A DNA stretch of 44,768 nt from Xylographa opegraphella (taxonomy: Eukaryota). Made by a program: the position numbers and the translations under genes. Location of the stretch: assembly GCA_022813865.1 (NCBI GenBank), contig JALDZX010000046.1:124001-168768 (forward strand). The letters run 5' to 3'. Positions 2,826 through 33,196 of this stretch are shown here, piece after piece; positions within the stretch are counted from its first letter, which is position 1, and every line of letters starts with the position of its first letter. The notes beneath the pieces are model-generated. The model searched no databases, was not told the DNA's origin, and worked only from the letters and a program-made list of their open reading frames with translations.

Positions 2826-4269
2826 TGTATAGCTTTATGCTGCAACTGTAACACATGGGCACACGAGAATTTCACTGGAATGTACATCAAATACTGTTTA
2901 TGTGTAGAGTTTCTATAAGGTGAACACGAATGTAAAAGTCTTGTTCTCGTTGCGGAATGAGTTCTGCTAACTGCGGTATTCTGATATTCTTGGCAGAACT
3001 TTTATGCTTCGGGATTATCGGCAGTAAGAATCACAAAGCGCCTAGCCACGAGCAATCGAGGTATTATGCATGATCTCGTTCTCTGCAGTGAAGTGATAGG
3101 CACAGCAGTATTCGCTATTTATAGCCCACATTCCGAAAAACCTTCGGCCAACGATTACATCAGCGTGTCAACTCACCCGTCAGGCATTTAAGAAAGTGAT
3201 GTGACGGCGCCACGGCCCGCATTTAGTTTCATCCGCGTTCAATTCAGCCTCGCCCGCTCATCTCTTGTCCGATCTAGAAAGAAAGAACGAGCCCCTTGTA
3301 GTCTGCGTAGTGAAACACACAGTTCATAAGAGTGTAGCTTTAACTGTAAATTCTTGCTCATCGCTACCACTAAGTTTAAAGGGCCTCAGTGGCTTACGCA
3401 GCGCCGCAGTGCTGGTGACTATCTTGGTAGTGAATAACACGCCTATATGCAAGAGCCGCGTTGCACTAACCAGAAAAATCTCGAATGACTCGATGGACGA
3501 TTGGTGAAGCGCTGTATTCGCTGTGAGCGCACCTCCGAATCAGACTGAACCGTAAAGCCGCAGAGCCATGGACGCCGGAACGGCTTGTCGAAAACCTGTA
3601 GAGGTGGTTCATGATGCCTTTTATATAGGCCAAGCACACAAAGAGCCCAAAGCCTGCGTCCAAAGAGCCCACAGAGAAGTGCTACCGTAAGACATGACCC
3701 CGTAGGATATAGAGGTCTACGGGTTCGAGCAATGTGAAAACACCCCTATACAAACATAACCTCGTTCAAACTGCCGGTGTGGCAGCTGATGTTACTGCCT
3801 TCCATATAACACGCCTTGGTAACACTTCGAGGCAAGATTCACTTCGAGCAAGCAATTTCGGATCGTGCAGTTCCGGGGACCAATGAGCGTTGAGCTCGTT
3901 AGTATAGCGATAGTGTTGCTGTTACGCGGGTACTTTCGATAGTGCTTTGACCCTCGCGCACATAAGTTTCTTCAACTTTCAACCACTTCCTTCTCACTTT
4001 GCAAACCCATTCTTATGGGAGGGAGTTCTTGGGCTCCTTCTCGCTCTCTTTTGGCAGAGTCTAGATCTTGTTGAAGTGCAATATATGCACAGTAAGAACG
4101 AGTCGAATAATGTGAAATCTCCATTCTCGAAACTCTTGACGCTTTCTGATGCTTTCTCGACGTAGTTTCGATCAACCAACAACGGCTTATCTGTTTTGCT
4201 CTGTCAGACTGACACCAATAAATATCCCAGGTCATCAAGTTCGTTAGACCATAATTGAGAATCCCGAAA

Positions 4270-5365
4270 ATGAGTAATCAGGTCCAACGTCCTCGGGTGA
4301 GAAAGATTCAGAACTCTTAATTGTGATACAAAGCATTAACATAACACAGGTATATGTACCTTATGACCCTGACGCCATTTTCTATCCTAATGGTACACGT
4401 AAGATGCATACTTGTAACTATTGGGCCCGTGGACAATGTCGATATACGGCTGCCGTGTGTAACAATGCTCACTCATGGCTAGACTTTGTGCCTGAGGGAA
4501 ACCGAGTTATTGCACCATATCGTAAGACTGTCCACTTTCATATAATTAGCAAACTGACTTTGTTATAGGTCCTGCACCTTGTTATCCAAACCGCCAGGAC
4601 AGTGGCGGGATGCATGCACAGGAAACTTATCTGAGTAGCCGAGCCCCTAGTGCACGTTCACCAGCTCCAGCTTCGGCACCGATGTATGCAACGAACGACA
4701 ACATATTTTCCCTTCGTCCGGCACAAGTTCATAGAGGCCAGTTAGACTATGTTGCGGGTATGTCCCTATTGGAAACAGCCCTTAGGAACTCCAACCAAGG
4801 TCGTGTGTCTTCCATCCAAGGCCGTGCGGCTTCCAACCAAAGTGGTGCGGCTTCCAAACAAGGTCCTTCATCTTCTACCCAAGGTCTTGCGTCTCTTACT
4901 ACGGCAAATCTGGCCATAGCACAGCTTCACCAGCAGATTTACGGTACAACCCTGCCAACTGTCAATCAGGCACGCGTCCGATCTAACCAGCAAACTTCGC
5001 GCCTTCCACTTCCCCCTGGTCTCCCCTTCAATCCTGCAGCACCGATCTTCCGAAGTGTTTTGCAACCTAATCGTGAGGCGGAGTATCGTAACAAAAGTGA
5101 GAACCTGGTAAAAACCTTGGACGAGCAAACCGCTGTCATCGTCGCTGTTCAAGATGCGCTTTACGATACGGCCTCTAACCTGTTTTGTGCAATTAAGGAC
5201 ATGAAGGCGGTCGTAAGGTCATTGCAGCAGGGTCAGAGCAACGACGCGACCAACATCAAGAAACTGGAATATCGTGCGACTGACTTGGAAGCTGTTTTAG
5301 AGCGGCAGGAAATTTGTAGGCGTCGTCTGGCAGAGCTTTCGATGCCAAACGTTAGCAGAGCATAA
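4270..5365 (+). CDS. Hypothetical CCCH zinc-finger protein with PAM2-like motif and C-terminal helical/coiled-coil domain (cluster member 1), 3 exons
   Basis: Exons 4270-4296, 4350-4521 and 4569-5365 join in frame through canonical introns (gtgaga..attaac..cag; gtaaga..ctgac..tag). It encodes C-x7-C-x6-C-x3-H (CNYWARGQCRYTAAVCNNAH), a PAM2-like LPFNPAAPIFRS and a helical C-terminus. Confidence 0.75.
4790..4894 (+). repeat. Five degenerate 21-bp in-frame repeats encoding heptads SNQGRVS/SIQGRAA/SNQSGAA/SKQGPSS/STQGLAS
   Basis: Units tccaaccaaggtcgtgtgtct, tccatccaaggccgtgcggct, tccaaccaaagtggtgcggct, tccaaacaaggtccttcatct, tctacccaaggtcttgcgtct. Confidence 0.8.
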
Positions 5366-5768
5366 TCATGCATTCTGAAAGCTGTCAAGTCTAACGCCAA
5401 TATTGTCAAGAGAAGAACCGTTTGTACTGCTGGAGGAACTGGATGTCGGTGTTGGTGCACAAAGGGTCTCAAATAATGAAACTTTCAGAATAGCTTTGCA
5501 AGGCCATAGGCCATAGCAGCAAAGCCCCCGAATTAAGCAATTCCACAAACTGATCAGTAGAATCTCCATGCTCCTCATATTCGATGCTCTAAAAAGCTCC
5601 CTTGTGAAGGCCGGAAGATTATTTGGCCACTTCCGCAGTGTTGGGTGCCTATTTTCGGCCCATCTACCTCTTGCCTCAAGTTGCTACAAGCCCCTTCTCA
5701 TATCCCAAGACATTGAATCACAACATAGGTCCTTAGCAACCAACAGCTTATGTCTCATAACAAAAAAC

Positions 5769-6544
5769 ATGGCAAACAATCTGTCAAGAGCCAACATTCC
5801 AAGTCGGCTAAATCCGACCGCTAAGGCTTTCGTGCCTTCTCTGCGCTCACCCTTGAGTATCTGGTCACCACTTGACAAACCCGATACTTGTCGGCTATGG
5901 GCAGACGGTATATCGTATCTCGCTTTTCTCTTTCTTCTGCGCTAATAAAGAGATAGAAGTCGCACAAGCCGAACCAGATGGGGAAGGAGAATCAGGATCC
6001 AGTAAGTTTTCAGAATAAATGCGATGAATGAACTATAATTAAGGAAAAACAAGGTCGATCACCACCAGAAAACGTGCTTTCCCTGTCCAAGGAATCAACA
6101 AACACGACGACTGTTAGCATCTCCGGTTTGTCAACGGGGGAAACCCAGCAGAACGAAGGACCAGCAGAGAAAAACATCCTTACGACTGCACTCGACCTGC
6201 CTAATGGAAACATAGACGATAAATTGTTACGGCAACTGAAGCTGATGTCTCTCAAAGATTACATTGTCCGGAGTCACGTAAAAAGCTTGAGAGTGATTCC
6301 AAAGAGACTTGAGCCCACGTTGGAGGCAATCAAGAGTGCCTGCACGGATATAATGGCCTTCGAAGGCATCATCAGCAATTCTCCAGTCGGGGGGCGCAAT
6401 AACGACTTCGCCGAAGCTGTAAAGAATATTCTCAAGGCCGTCGGGAAGCAAGAAGACCTGATAGATATCCTGACAAGGGTGAGAATCAGCACTGAATCTA
6501 GCCTCTACAAAGAAAACATGGGACACTTACTGCACAAAACATGA
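5769..6544 (+). CDS. Hypothetical PAM2-motif protein with CCCH remnant and C-terminal helical domain (cluster member 2), probably 3 exons
   Basis: ATG 5769 MANNLSRANIPSRLNPTAKAFVP is a near-consensus PAM2, followed by TCRLWAD. Introns gtatat..gctaat..tag (~5908-5956) and gtaagt..caag (~6002-6053) join in frame to the 6074-6544 ORF. Confidence 0.65.
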
Positions 6545-7674
6545 AGAAAACGACACGAAGATCAGCATCGTTTCAACGATGAGATATGAGCATCTGGCCA
6601 GTTCTATGGGCTGCGGCTTGATCCAATTGAGGTTAATTTAAGCTCGGGAGTTGCGGTCGAGAACCAAGCGGGGAAAAATTCATCCTAGCCGCTGCAAGGT
6701 TCTTTCTTTCGGTAGGAAAATGCACCACTTCTTCTCGCTCATTTTACCTGTGACTCGTCCTTCTTACTTCTGGCTGTGACCGAGTATGGACTCGGTCTCG
6801 GGGCCGGCTCGTCTCGAATCGGATTTTATTCTAATGTCGACGTCGGAAATGCTCCGCCATTTCGGATGCTGTATAACCAACGGCGAACGTCTTCCCCTGA
6901 TGAGCCATACCTGCGGCGTGAACCAGCTCCCGAATAGTCCTAGTGATGTTGCACTCGCATGTCGAACGTCGCTCTAATGGAGTTCTCTTTCGGACCATGG
7001 AATTATTCGGAGTCCCACTTACTTACTGTAACTTGAGCAGCACATTGGTCAATCACAAACCGCTGTTATGCTCTTGAAGTGGGTTTCATACTCTCCTAAG
7101 GATCGCCCTATCCCGCTCTTGCCGCTATTTCAATGAATTTTCTGACCTTCATGCTGAATGACAAATCCTTCAAGACTTGTTTTTCATAGTGTCTATGTTT
7201 ATGTTAGGCTTGAAATCTTAGGCATCATTGGATGTGTGCTTTTCGTAACGCGTGTGTCCGGAGCCTTTCTTCAATGTCGTAAGTTGAAATCATATGCCGC
7301 GGACAAATTCCAGCATTTTCAGAACTGAACCCGACCACACCACCGCGTCCAATTTGACGCAAAAGCGGAACTTCAGGCGTACTGTTACTTGTCTATCACT
7401 TTGTAGTGATTATGCTGAGACTATTCAATCATACATTGTTTGCTATCATGTGAACGATATCGCTATGGTCGTCCAAAGGAGAACCCCTATTTCTCCTTCA
7501 CACTAGTGGCCTTAGTTTATCAACCGCTCCAACGACCTACATTCGCACAACCACATCCAAGCAGCTATTTACGTTCGGAAACGAGATTACGTATCCGCTG
7601 TTCCCTCTGTCTTCTTGCTCAGCAATCAGATCCCACTCTACCATCTCAAAGATCACATACCCATCATCGAAACA

Positions 7675-8116
7675 ATGTCTACGTCCAACATCACTCAGGA
7701 TCACGAGCGTCACGGCAGCTCTGCGGCAAACGAGCCCGCCGCGCCAGGTAAGTGAATAATTTCTCTTGACACACCGGTGCCTACCTTACATGAAGGTGAT
7801 GATGATGCTGATCGTTGGTCTAGCAGTCGTTAACCCAACCTCGTTGTCCACCGCCCCCCAGCTCTTGCTGGAGAATAGTGTTGCCAACCTCTGGGCCGCC
7901 GTCAAAATGGCCGAAACGACAATGAATGAATCGGCGCGTCTGCTAAAGGAGGCCCCCACGTCCGAAACCATTGCACTCGTGGTGGTAGCGCAGACGCAGC
8001 TGGTGGCACGGCTTGATGAATTGCGTTTCGCGATGAAGGTGGATTTCAAGCATGCGGGGGCCGAAAAACTCCTCAAAAAGGGCATGGACCCCAAGTATCA
8101 GGAGGCATTTATCTAG
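7675..8116 (+). CDS. Small hypothetical helical protein (cluster member 3, helical domain only), 2 exons
   Basis: ATG 7675 MSTSNITQDHERHGSSAANEPAAP, then intron gtaagt(7748)..gctgat..ctag(7823), then in frame AVVNPTSLSTAPQLLLENSVANLWAAVKMAE... to the stop at 8116. Confidence 0.6.
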
Positions 8117-8922
8117 GAGATCGGGGAGGGGAAAGTAGAAAGATCTGGTGAGGGGACGCCGGTGGTTTTGTTTGTCGTGGATAGCTTTGCACCATTTTCC
8201 TCAATTGAGGAAGTAATGGACGTGTTCTCTGGTGTTCTGAATCGTAGAATGATGTGACTTGATATACTCAAAGGCCTTTCCATTGTTTTCGAATTGAGTA
8301 TCATAAGATAAGTATTAACAATGATCAGGTCTGTGTCCCCTAAGAGTTCCTATCTAAGGTGATATTCAAAGCTAGAATCTACTGCTGTTGTGTATCTAGA
8401 GGCCCTCCTTATTACCCAGATAGTATATATCACGCTATTAGGATCTACAACAACTGAATACATGCCTGACCAAAAACCTTGTTAAGAAAAAAGGCCACAG
8501 AACCCCCTGATGCAATTCAGGCGTAGAGACCGTTCAAATAACACACTAAACAATTTATATTAGGTTTCTATTTAGCAAACTTCTTAGTATGCGCAGGGGA
8601 TCCTCCATCGTGTATTTTTTGGCCATTAAGATTATCTTAAAATAACTTCCATACCTGTATACTCAGACCGCAAGGCCAAAATCAGGCACGCACAGCTCCT
8701 CCCTCTGTTCATTCTTTACCTTCACGAGGTCTCTATCCCTGCTCTAGTGGTGCTAGTATTTGTATATCCTAAATTAAATTCTGGTACACGCTCAATTTGA
8801 GAGCGGTCTCCATAACACATGTGTTTTGTGAGATCTTCATTTCGATGTTCTGTGAATAAATAAGATGAGCTGCTAGACTAGCCAGGCTAGTGGTGTCTTT
8901 ACAAGATATAGACCGGGTGTCG

Positions 8923-9050
8923 TTCTGAAAACCGCACCGACTCACACATAAACAAGAGATCGTTCTGAGAACCGCTGCGACTGACACATGAACCGCTGCG
9001 ACTGCCACATAAACCGCACCTCATTCTGAGAACCGCAACCGACTAGCACA
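8923..9050 (+). repeat. Degenerate ~20-30 bp direct repeats (ttctgaRAACCGC..CGACT..CACAT) immediately upstream of the 9068 ATG
   Basis: ttctgaaaaccgcaccgactcacacataaac / ttctgagaaccgctgcgactgacacatgaac / cgctgcgactgccacataaaccgcacc / ttctgagaaccgcaaccgactagcaca. Confidence 0.75.
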
Positions 9051-9067
9051 GTACCGATACGACAAGG

Positions 9068-10271
9068 ATGGAGCGCTCTACAGGAAATATACCTTCAAAC
9101 CCGAATCTTTACATCCAGCTTCCCTACGTCGTGTCTGAGAATCCACCAGTTCCTGTGTACTTGGTTCATGGAGGCGTGCTACAGCCGCAACATCCTCAAC
9201 TTAGCAATCAAATCATCCCCTTTCACCTGAGAACACACTTCACGCCCGAAGCCATTCTTGACCGTGGCAACTTGGTTGCAGTGTCAAGCAACACAACACG
9301 TTTTCCCTTGGATCGCTGTCCCCAACAGCGCTCAGCACATGAAATATTTCACAGGACCGGACTAGCAGATCCAATACCTGACGTACCCAATCTCTCATCG
9401 CTAGGTTTCATGCCGCCTCCAAGTACATGGACGTCGCCAGCTATGAAAGCTTCTAATCAACAAAATTCAGAACAAAATGCAGGTTTTGGCCACAGCCACT
9501 CGAATCCTCAAACGGGTGGGGGGCAATATATACCGTCTGGTCGCTTGACATGCCGCTCTTGGTTCACGAAGGGCGAGTGCGACAAACCTCCAGGCCAGTG
9601 TCGTTATATGCATACGCATAATGGCCAAGGTGTTCCAACATTGCCAGCTATAGAGGTTGATAGTCGTAAGAAAACCTGCCACTGATACGCTCGTAGCCTA
9701 AACTGACGATGTTGCAGAGCCTATCGAAAAAGAAATCTTATGTCGAACAGACTTCTTGCCGCCTTTGCCAAATGTCCGACACTATGAATCACACAGCCCC
9801 GAGTTAAAAGATCCTGATACTCAATCCGCCGGACCGCTGGTTGTTGGCCCACGCTCTTCTTCGCAGCCATACGAAATGAGAGCCAAAATCTACAGCATCG
9901 TTGCACTCAGTAACCGTCTTCAAAGGATGGTGCAGAAGCCTCAGACTCCAGGTTCCAACGGCTCAGGCACGCACCAGAATGGAGCGACGAGTTCTCTTTC
10001 AGTCGAGCTGGCCAAGGCACGAGACTTCGTTCAAGAGCTATACACGGAGTTTCAGACCTATCACACAGTTATTGAGCAAATCCAACCACGCCTATTAGAC
10101 TTCGCCGAGCCGTTGCGCAACGCTGCCCATGCAATGAACATGACCTACCGTGAGTTGTCACTGCTTGAACTTATGAAAATGGCGGCAGATGAAATCCGTG
10201 TGATCATTGGCCGTCATCGAGTTGCAGAATGGTTGACTATTGACGGGAAGAAGTCCTTGAAGCCGTTGTGA
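9068..10271 (+). CDS. Hypothetical CCCH zinc-finger protein with C-terminal helical/coiled-coil domain (cluster member 4), 2 exons
   Basis: Exon 9068-9665, intron gtaaga..aaactgac..cag (9666-9717) and exon 9718-10271 join in frame. It encodes C-x8-C-x6-C-x3-H (CRSWFTKGECDKPPGQCRYMH). Confidence 0.75.
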
Positions 10272-30769: not shown

Positions 30770-32629
30770 AGCTGTAAGTGCATGTCTTCCGCTTCGTCTA
30801 TCCCGTTCTTACCAAGAATGTCAGTGCACGGCTTCTTTACTCCCCGACCGAATCAACGAGTCTCTTGGGCACTACTCAGCGTATCATGTGAGCGATGATG
30901 TTTTCCAGCATAGCGTGTTCGTGGGTGGCGACTGCCGTGGCATCGAGTTTCAAGCGCGGTGCATTGGTCTGGCTTGCATGGGTGTGTCGTCCGGGCATAG
31001 CAATTTTGGGCGCGGCGTGGTTTGGCATGGCTTGCAAGCATTGGGAAACGGCGGTACCACTACTGTGATGACGATGGCGTTGAGGTCGGCGTTGGCGTTT
31101 AGTGCTTTGTTCTTCAGGCTCGACGAGGCTTCTAGCGCCTCGTGTCTTCTTGGCGGGTTGGTTTTGTGTCATTCGTTTCAGCAGCGGACAGTCTAAAGTT
31201 TGGTTCCTCAGCTGAAATCCATACCGAACCTTGAATAGGGGGCCGCAAACGCCGACCTTATATGACTCCTACATCGCAGAACCTCATTCCTCAACCCTGC
31301 CTAGCGGTCAGCCCTCCCGTGCCTCAGCCGTAATTCCTGAAAGTATAGCCGGTCGCCCGGTGGGGAAACGGCGACTTGAGTGGAGCACCTTCGTCATGGT
31401 TCCTCCTCCGCGTCTGGGTCGCCCACGTTAATCTGTCGACCTGGCAGCGAGGCGCAATGAACCCTATGAGTAATTCAATTGCTCCTGCCTGGATTGGCTC
31501 GACTTCCCCCGAGGCGCAATGAACCCAACAATTCGTGATACCCCGGTGGATACCTGACCCTTCCTCAACGAGCACGTCTCTACCTCCGGATTCCTTCCCG
31601 GTCAAGAAGCCTGATGATCCTTCATCCATCTGCACACAGATCCGTAGGAGCAGTCGTGCAAAAGAAGCCCGGAAGAACGCCGCAGGCAATTCCTTCACAC
31701 TCCCATGCTCCGCCGCCAGCCCTTCTTACTACCCACCGCTGAGGAAGACACAAAACCCGTACTCCGCGAGCGACCGGAACCTCCCAGCACTCGCACCACG
31801 TACTGAGTCACGACCCCATGTAGCATCCGTACACCGCGCCTCCGTCCACCGAACCTCAGTCCGAAGGCGGTGAAGGAAAAACAAGGCAAAAAGAATTTCC
31901 TCCCTTACTGCCTGAGAAGCAGCAGCCTGGGCGCACCCCGCCCTTCCAAACACACAAACACCTTCCTCCGCGCCCTCCTCAACCTGCCAACCGCCCACGT
32001 GCTCCCCATTTCCCTCAGCGCAAGCGGCCTCGCCCCGAAAATCCCCTCAGCTCGCCCCTTCCTTTCCCCCTCTCACAAAGCGTGGCTATGACGCGAAAAC
32101 CCCCCCCCTCTCACCCGGCACCCGGATGAGGTCATGAGGCTCCGCCGAACCCCTGCCGTTGCGGCGAAACGCCCGAAGACCAAAAAGTCAGCCTCCGGGG
32201 CGTCTGTTTGCGCCTAAGCGCCCGTGCCCCCCCTCCCCCCAAAACCGAAAACCATGGGAATAAACCAAAAATCGAACTTTTTTGCTTCTCAGCCCCAGGT
32301 TCGCCTAGGCTGCGTCACCGCGAGCCCTTTGCCCCCCATCCGGAGTCCGGTAACGTCGGCGCAGCAAGTCGCGGCGATGGTAAACTCTGGTTCGGGTATC
32401 TCTCAGCCTCTTCTGCTCTACGCCCTGCACGTGTCCTGGGCGTTATCTTGGCCAGGGAGATGCGTAGGGCTGGATGCGGCGTGCACGAGCTCGGTGATTA
32501 CTCGGTCCGAGAGAGAGCTAGGTGGATGGTTTTTCCGATTGCGTTGTTTCGCGCTAAATCAGCAGACTGGAGGACTATGCGGGTGGGTATGTTGCGCATC
32601 CTTCGCGCGATGCGCGGGGGCGTGTCGTG

Positions 32630-32870
32630 CATGGGGTGGAGGTCATGTGCGGCGGGGTGGAGGGGTGGGGGTCTGGTGGGGGTGGGTCGGGAGGGAGAGG
32701 GGGTGGGGAGGAGGGGAGGGGGAGGCGAGGGGATTTTGGAGGTTGAGGGTGGAAGGTGGGATTGGGGAAGGAGGTTGGGAGGATGGAGGAGGGTGCGGAA
32801 TGGTGTGTGGTCTGGTAGGGATGTAGGGATTCTGGGTGATGGAAGTTATAGGGGGCAAGGAAAGGGCTGA
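32630..32870 (+). repeat. G-rich low-complexity tract with many G3-G5 runs (G-quadruplex potential)
   Basis: ggcggggtggaggggtgggggtctggtgggggtgggtcgggagggagagggggtggggaggaggggaggggg... Confidence 0.7.
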
Positions 32871-33196
32871 AGATATAGTCAAGAGTTTGAAGGGTCGGAC
32901 TATATGATGAAGGTATGTGATGAAGGCTTGAGCATCTGATGAAGAATGTGATGTTGGCGAACAACCCTCGTCATGATTCTGAGAAGATCATAAGTGGACG
33001 ATAACGTGTGGTGAATAGGTTCAATGCTCAAAGTACTCTTCATCATTGTCAAATCGTGACAAGTTATCATACACAAGAGTCATCTGCGCACTTTCTACTA
33101 TGCCTGAGATATTTTTCACCATATGTCCTTCCCATCTATATTCCTACGCCAAGCTCCGAACTCCTTCGCCAGTATGTTTCCCTCCCCAAAGGCAGC

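Follow-up and report, generated by a model that had tools for sequence, protein, structure and literature searches.

A tandem gene array in Xylographa with a member of an unnamed fungal family of CCCH-finger proteins

Introduction

Pan3, Makorin and other proteins in which a zinc finger of the CCCH type (three cysteines and a histidine) is paired with a PAM2 peptide link the recognition of RNA to the poly(A)-binding protein and thereby to deadenylation or quality control. Makorin (MKRN1) and Unkempt, both animal proteins, are described as having CCCH fingers together with a PAM2 or PAM2-like peptide, and HELZ is another PAM2-bearing CCCH protein of animals. For Pan3, a published account (PMC10590902) describes an N-terminal region in which a single CCCH finger with a preference for poly(A) and a PAM2 that binds the MLLE domain both lie in a disordered part. 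Here we analyse four consecutive genes, g1 to g4, in a 44,768-nucleotide stretch of the genome of the lichen fungus Xylographa opegraphella (contig JALDZX010000046.1, positions 124,001 to 168,768; the window, in whose coordinates all positions are given). A reading of the sequence alone had proposed that these genes are diverged paralogs built from a CCCH finger, a PAM2 motif and a shared helical domain, and that they form a new family of mRNA regulators.

That interpretation is partly supported. The two short modules are indeed spread unevenly over the array, with fingers in g1 and g4, PAM2 in g2 and neither in g3. What is new here is a C-terminal domain not described before in CCCH proteins that bear a PAM2-type peptide, together with the unusual way in which the modules are shared out along a tandem array.

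Results and discussion

All four genes and their features lie on the + strand. The spliced models on which we rely were built from sequence alone, and their predicted introns are canonical (GT..AG, 47-76 nucleotides). The last gene of the array is g4 (MMC26_005848; 9068..10271, exons 9068-9665 and 9718-10271, 383 amino acids). It has the finger-plus-helix architecture that had been read from it: a Cx8Cx6Cx3H finger at 9551..9613, kept in the models P0007 of X. pallens and P0013 of X. trunciseda, and a C-terminal helical domain at 9864..10253, which AlphaFold2 and profile search together delimit as the conserved core of a family. This domain of about 130 residues is predicted to form a bundle of the four-helix type, with modelled helices at 49-72, 92-140 (kinked) and 145-178; its mean pLDDT (predicted local distance difference test) is 63.8, with values of 74-86 across most of the helical part.

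A profile of the last exon of g4 retrieved seven matches at E<=1e-3 from 1.84 billion representative proteins, namely g4's own cluster (2.4e-110) and six more clusters (2e-32 to 4e-7). One of these includes MMC19_004937 of Ptychographa xylographoides (P0034), a protein of 502 amino acids in which a Cx7Cx6Cx3H finger is followed by a g1-like 'APIF' peptide and then by the g4-type domain, and whose finger region is also matched by the first exon of g4 (E=4e-5). In a more distant member, on a metagenome contig (L001), a PAM2-like peptide precedes a Cx8Cx6Cx3H finger, the gene has a phase-1 intron 13 residues past the finger histidine, and the g4-type domain follows; yet another member (P0029) starts with a PAM2-like peptide. 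Judged by its sequence, g4 is the Xylographa member of a wider, unnamed fungal family characterized by a PAM2-like peptide, a CCCH finger, a phase-1 intron and a helical bundle. The description of the array as lineage-specific therefore needs to be divided: it does not hold for the g4-type domain, which occurs outside Xylographa in Ptychographa and five further clusters, but species-named matches to g1-g3 in word-seeded searches come only from Xylographa.

A connection to this family is also seen in g1 (4270..5365; exons 4270-4296, 4350-4521 and 4569-5365; 331 amino acids), whose last exon is 100% identical to the X. opegraphella hypothetical protein MMC26_005845. Its finger (4413..4472) has the same Cx7Cx6Cx3H spacing as that of P0034, and the finger exon is identical to the P0034 finger at 16 of 31 positions (52%; 47 bits, E=2e-12), whereas no solved CCCH chain matches the g1 finger with more than 15.6 bits. 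The intron that follows the finger is of phase 1 in both g1 and g4 and lies 16-17 residues past the histidine; a family-type finger with a phase-1 intron 13-17 residues past its histidine is thus common to g1, g4 and L001. Farther downstream, alignment of orthologues reveals a proline-rich 'APIF' peptide, reminiscent of PAM2 (5024..5056), that is invariant in all five orthologues of g1. The finger match, its spacing, the intron position and this peptide are what tie g1 to the g4 family.

The last exon of g1 is modelled by AlphaFold2 as about 164 disordered residues and then a helical hairpin (5066..5338) with helices of 55 and 31 residues. The pLDDT is 70-88 in the hairpin only, and the mean over the whole model is 53.4. 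The X. opegraphella gene also carries a 28-residue insertion rich in serine, glutamine and glycine, with internal repeats (4790-4880), which is absent from all five orthologues (alignment columns 118-145). A correspondence between the g1 peptide with its following 'QP' and 'GPLVVGPRS..QP' of g4 was noticed by eye only and was proposed by no aligner, and we make no claim for it.

In g2 (MMC26_005846; 5769..6544, exons 5769-5907, 5957-6001 and 6069-6544, 219 amino acids) the earlier description of a PAM2 motif, a finger remnant and a helical end is borne out. The motif at 5796..5840 passes the gathering cut-off of 20 bits for Pfam PF07145, with 20.9 bits for the 46-residue exon and 22.7 bits for a 26-residue piece, and it is kept in three of three full-length orthologues. 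It is followed by a half-finger, T-C-x-L-W (5886..5900), which sits where the first finger cysteine would be and in which that cysteine alone is present and the other zinc ligands are absent; this stretch, too, is conserved in all three full-length orthologues. The order of PAM2 and then a T-C-x-x-W stub is the same as in L001, and for this reason we connect g2 to the g4 family. We also asked whether the first intron of g2 might be a decayed finger, but dropped the idea: its pyrimidine tract is normal, it contains a branch-like CTAAT, and reading through it yields no cysteine or histidine codons.

The shortest gene, g3 (MMC26_005847; 7675..8116, exons 7675-7747 and 7824-8116, 121 amino acids), is helical and has neither a finger nor a PAM2 module, as had been read. 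In all four genes, as in L001, the intron that precedes the last exon is of phase 1, and it is this phase, together with position and orientation, that ties g3 to the family; there is no link at the level of modules.

The four co-oriented genes, with starts at 4270, 5769, 7675 and 9068, are confirmed both by the spliced models and by consecutive NCBI locus tags, and they are not peculiar to one genome. Word-seeded searches gave, for g1, six matches at E<=0.01 among 1972 candidates, these being its own protein and five orthologues (60-71% identical), for g4 one long orthologue, and for a mixed g2/g3/g4 profile 20 proteins among 1828 candidates. For g2 there are seven orthologues (57-73% identical) and for g3 four (60-77%). 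Every species-named match belongs to Xylographa (opegraphella, soralifera, bjoerkii, trunciseda, vitiligo, pallens and parallela). Cluster genes share contigs or have consecutive tags in X. opegraphella, X. pallens, X. trunciseda, X. bjoerkii and X. soralifera and on three more contigs, and the same gene order recurs in other species of the genus (tags 2911, 2912, 2913 and 2915 in X. pallens, 3261-3263 in X. trunciseda); on several of the other contigs, two or three of the genes occur together. Because orthologues 57-82% identical to the window genes occur in a shared order and with uninterrupted reading frames, the four genes are real and conserved, and have been clustered since before the radiation of the genus. 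In X. pallens, an annotated gene (2914) separates the orthologues of g3 and g4; in the corresponding spacer of the window (8117-9067) no open reading frame with a homologue was seen as its counterpart.

We propose that g4 belongs to this wider fungal family, that g1 and g2 are its diverged duplicates in a tandem array, and that the proteins serve as adaptors at the 3' end of mRNA, a reading to which, taken as a whole, we give about an even chance. In Xylographa, three genes restricted to the genus accompany g4 in the tandem array. Of these, g1 most likely arose as a partial or whole duplicate and then diverged: finger, post-finger intron and 'APIF' peptide have been retained, but its end is a two-helix hairpin in which no similarity to the g4 bundle can be detected. 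Duplication is also the most likely source of g2, in which a canonical PAM2 and just the first stub of the finger remain. As for g3, it consists of a helical hairpin only. By analogy with described proteins, the PAM2 peptide would dock on the MLLE domain of the poly(A)-binding protein, the single finger would contact RNA, possibly poly(A), as does the N-terminal finger of Pan3, and the helical C-terminus would recruit a partner. In other words, we infer from the modules that these proteins may link the poly(A)-binding protein and RNA.

A number of results weigh against this proposal. Neither finger reaches the Pfam gathering threshold: the best family for g1 is zf-CCCH_PARP12 (16.1 bits, cut-off 27) and for g4 zf-CCCH_2-like_3 (15.6 bits, cut-off 27). 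The architecture described for g1, a finger, a PAM2-like peptide and a helix, stands as far as the finger pattern, the peptide and the helical end are concerned, but the PAM2 model (PF07145) does not detect the 'APIF' peptide (0 families at E<=10), nor does it find anything at that threshold in the N-terminus of g4 or in the peptide of L001. Two g2 orthologues fall under the PAM2 cut-off, one with 12.7 bits (P0014) and one without a match at E<=1 (P0021). The order of modules also differs, the finger coming before the PAM2-like peptide in g1 and the peptide before the finger in g2 and L001. None of the seven matches to the last-exon profile of g4 is of the g1, g2 or g3 type, and the last exon of g1 finds P0034 with a best E of 0.54. 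Relatives of g1-g3 were sought only by a word-seeded search, and the same search missed the Ptychographa relative of g4. Finally, an in-frame segment of 84 nucleotides that codes for the entire g1 finger (4399..4482) has been spliced out in two NCBI models, P0001 of X. opegraphella and P0003 of X. soralifera. This segment is intron-like, with a GTAAGA donor and a branch-like CTCAC 11 nucleotides before a TAG acceptor; its removal reflects either a mistake in annotation or a splice switch between finger-plus and finger-minus forms.

To these results must be added the behaviour of the C-terminal regions, since those of g1, g2 and g3 have no significant similarity to the g4 family or to each other. 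Comparison of orthologue profiles by hhalign gave P=0.052-0.36; with the g4 profile widened by distant relatives, P was 0.021 for g1, 0.069 for g2 and 0.063 for g3; and with the domains cut out it was 0.018-0.18. In the last comparison, three of 12 reversed controls (scores of 24.2, 22.3 and 20.7) exceeded all six real pairs, the best of which scored 17.1.

The sequence-only reading had rested on a single homologous helical domain in all four genes, through which the products would hetero-oligomerize, with g3 in a dominant-negative role. The 24-residue segments that it aligned are present (at g1 255, g2 133, g3 31 and g4 316), and g1 and g4 are identical at nine of the 24 positions, as had been counted; the other five pairs share three to seven. 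However, nine identities are reached by 17 of 1000 shuffles and likewise by reversed g4, and for the other pairs between 114 and 990 of 1000 shuffles do at least as well as the best real 24-mer. Whole-protein BLASTP was non-significant for all six pairs (best E 0.39-22), Smith-Waterman scores for the same pairs were reached by 12-153 of 300 shuffles, and tblastn with 27 proteins (our own models and orthologues) gave no cross-match between genes at E<=1. The alignment had been said to be free of gaps, but the two g1-g4 segments can be aligned only with an 8-residue gap between them, and MAFFT and hhalign prefer other registers for g2 (the 'DFAE' helix) and g3 (another helix).

Two further points could be read in favour of a shared domain: the top hhalign alignments of g1-g3, g1-g4 and g3-g4 are consistent with one another in register, and in the AlphaFold2 models the ends of g1 and g4 alike consist of a long helix (about 50 residues) that turns tightly into a second one of about 32, a topology that is generic. 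Set against these, the similarity does not rise above that of shuffled or reversed sequences, and the closed bundle modelled for g4 offers in itself no grounds for oligomerization. A four-chain prediction of g3 with the C-terminal parts of g1, g2 and g4, a case unlike those on which the tool is calibrated and one for which controls were not folded, gave no answer (score 0.00 in two runs) and weighs on neither side. All four genes do end in helices, but similarity among these ends is non-significant. Their profiles resemble one another no more than generic helix bias would produce, and by the criterion for refutation that came with the sequence-only reading, the argument from a common helical domain fails, at least with the power of these tests. 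We consider the shared-domain account very improbable, and hetero-oligomerization and a dominant-negative role are speculation.

Another possible history is that only the N-terminal exons, with the finger or the PAM2-type peptide, were copied from a g4-type gene and joined to unrelated or new helical C-terminal exons, g3 being an unrelated orphan. Under such a history, similarity would be confined to the finger and peptide exons, as is the case, and C-terminal exons would be no more similar than their reversed controls, as they are; moreover, the phase-1 intron parts the two halves in every gene, which would allow exons to be exchanged in frame. P0034 speaks against it, since a g1-like finger and 'APIF' peptide stand there in one protein with a g4-type domain, which an ancestor of g1 may thus also have possessed. 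The predicted hairpins of similar size in g1 and g4 and the consistent registers among g1, g3 and g4 also count against chimeric origins, and we judge them unlikely, if well worth keeping in mind. A further explanation would dispense with a family altogether and see four unrelated, genus-specific orphans side by side, with a common motif and common fingers that were gained independently. The six non-significant whole-protein comparisons and the lack of tblastn cross-matches at E<=1 agree with this, and short PAM2-type peptides can arise convergently. It would leave to chance, however, the 47 bits between the g1 finger and a g4-family finger (at most 15.6 bits to solved CCCH chains), the common finger spacing and intron position, the PAM2-then-stub order that g2 has in common with L001, and a co-oriented tandem arrangement that is conserved across species. 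Four independent orphans thus seem improbable to us.

Returning to the proposal that g4 belongs to a wider family with g1 and g2 as its duplicates, a more elaborate version may be imagined. An ancestral lichen-fungal adaptor with a PAM2 peptide, a CCCH finger and a helical bundle would have multiplied in tandem in Xylographa and its modules would have been split, with RNA contact left to g1 and g4, docking on the poly(A)-binding protein to g2 and a helix alone to g3; the products would reassemble through their helical ends, and g1 could switch its finger by splicing the 84-nucleotide coding intron. We regard this scenario as very doubtful.

A by-product of the analysis is a proposed correction of the public annotation of g1 and g4. 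At least two gene models are probably wrong at this locus, one truncated through its finger and the other with its finger spliced out. The NCBI model of g4 (P0009) is cut to 203 amino acids: it omits the first exon and places its start methionine inside the CCCH finger, whereas the X. pallens orthologue (P0007) reads straight across the splice junction of our model. The NCBI model of g1 (P0001) has 303 amino acids and is identical to ours across the last exon. For g2 the NCBI model (P0008) uses an acceptor 15 nucleotides upstream, giving a third exon of 6054-6544 and a protein of 224 amino acids, and for g3 our model and that of NCBI (P0019) agree in start and length.

Directly upstream of the g4 start codon is an array of direct repeats (8920..9036, + strand) with the core GAACCGC-NN-CGACT in three to four copies spaced 21-61 nucleotides apart. 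The pattern has three matches where 0.21 are expected, a number reached by none of 100 shuffles, and it may be a promoter or 5' untranslated region element. The window holds no further copies of the genes detectable by tblastn with the 27 proteins, the remaining rows being chance matches (E 0.11-0.85). Of the housekeeping genes that had been placed around the array, THOC2, ETF and ArfGAP are confirmed by Pfam as neighbouring genes, but the open reading frame called an epimerase has no Pfam match at E<=0.001. Elsewhere in the window, positions 31000-33000 have a G+C content of 0.57-0.60, compared with about 0.47-0.50 in other parts, and contain + strand open reading frames of 202-246 amino acids; the one that was scanned (32130-32867) has no Pfam match.

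Comparison with known proteins

The statement that this architecture belongs to no named family withstood each of the database searches. Pfam gave no family over the exons beyond PAM2 and weak CCCH matches; a profile search of Protein Data Bank sequences gave a best E of 0.19 for g4 and no match at E<=1 for g1; Foldseek returned nothing at E<=0.001 for the g4 domain; and the best ESM Atlas scores were 0.86 for the g4 last exon and 0.82 for the g1 hairpin, under the level of 0.9 at which we would have followed a lead. Generic four-helix bundles, such as designed bundles and the ligand-binding domains of chemoreceptors, resemble the g4 domain with fold scores in the range that is non-specific for helical proteins and with identities of 3-14% (VIA-align) or 7-20% (Foldseek), and no kinship is implied. 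In the literature on PAM2 and CCCH proteins, fungi, lichens and Xylographa genomes, no paper was found that describes such a fungal family.

The family has so far been seen only in slow-growing lichen fungi and further contigs, and its function is deduced from its modules alone, so that its practical reach is limited. If our proposal is true, however, a fungal family with both modules and a new helical domain would represent an additional adaptor at the mRNA 3' end, and the array in Xylographa would show, as a natural experiment on a small scale, how modular proteins are dismantled after duplication.

How, then, do these proteins compare with those already described? They are not members of Pan3 or Makorin and have no pseudokinase, knob or RING domain; neither Pan3 nor kinase-like families were found in the seven exon translations (Pfam, E<=1) or in the 12 relatives that were scanned. 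Makorin, HELZ and Unkempt are of an animal type in which several fingers accompany a RING or helicase domain, whereas the family found here has a single finger, lacks catalytic and RING domains and is distributed among lichen fungi. There is a likeness to Pan3, which also pairs a single CCCH finger with a PAM2-type peptide. Unlike Pan3, with its pseudokinase, coiled coil and C-terminal knob, the genes described here have none of the three and end instead in a family-specific bundle, as predicted for g4, or in a hairpin, as predicted for g1.

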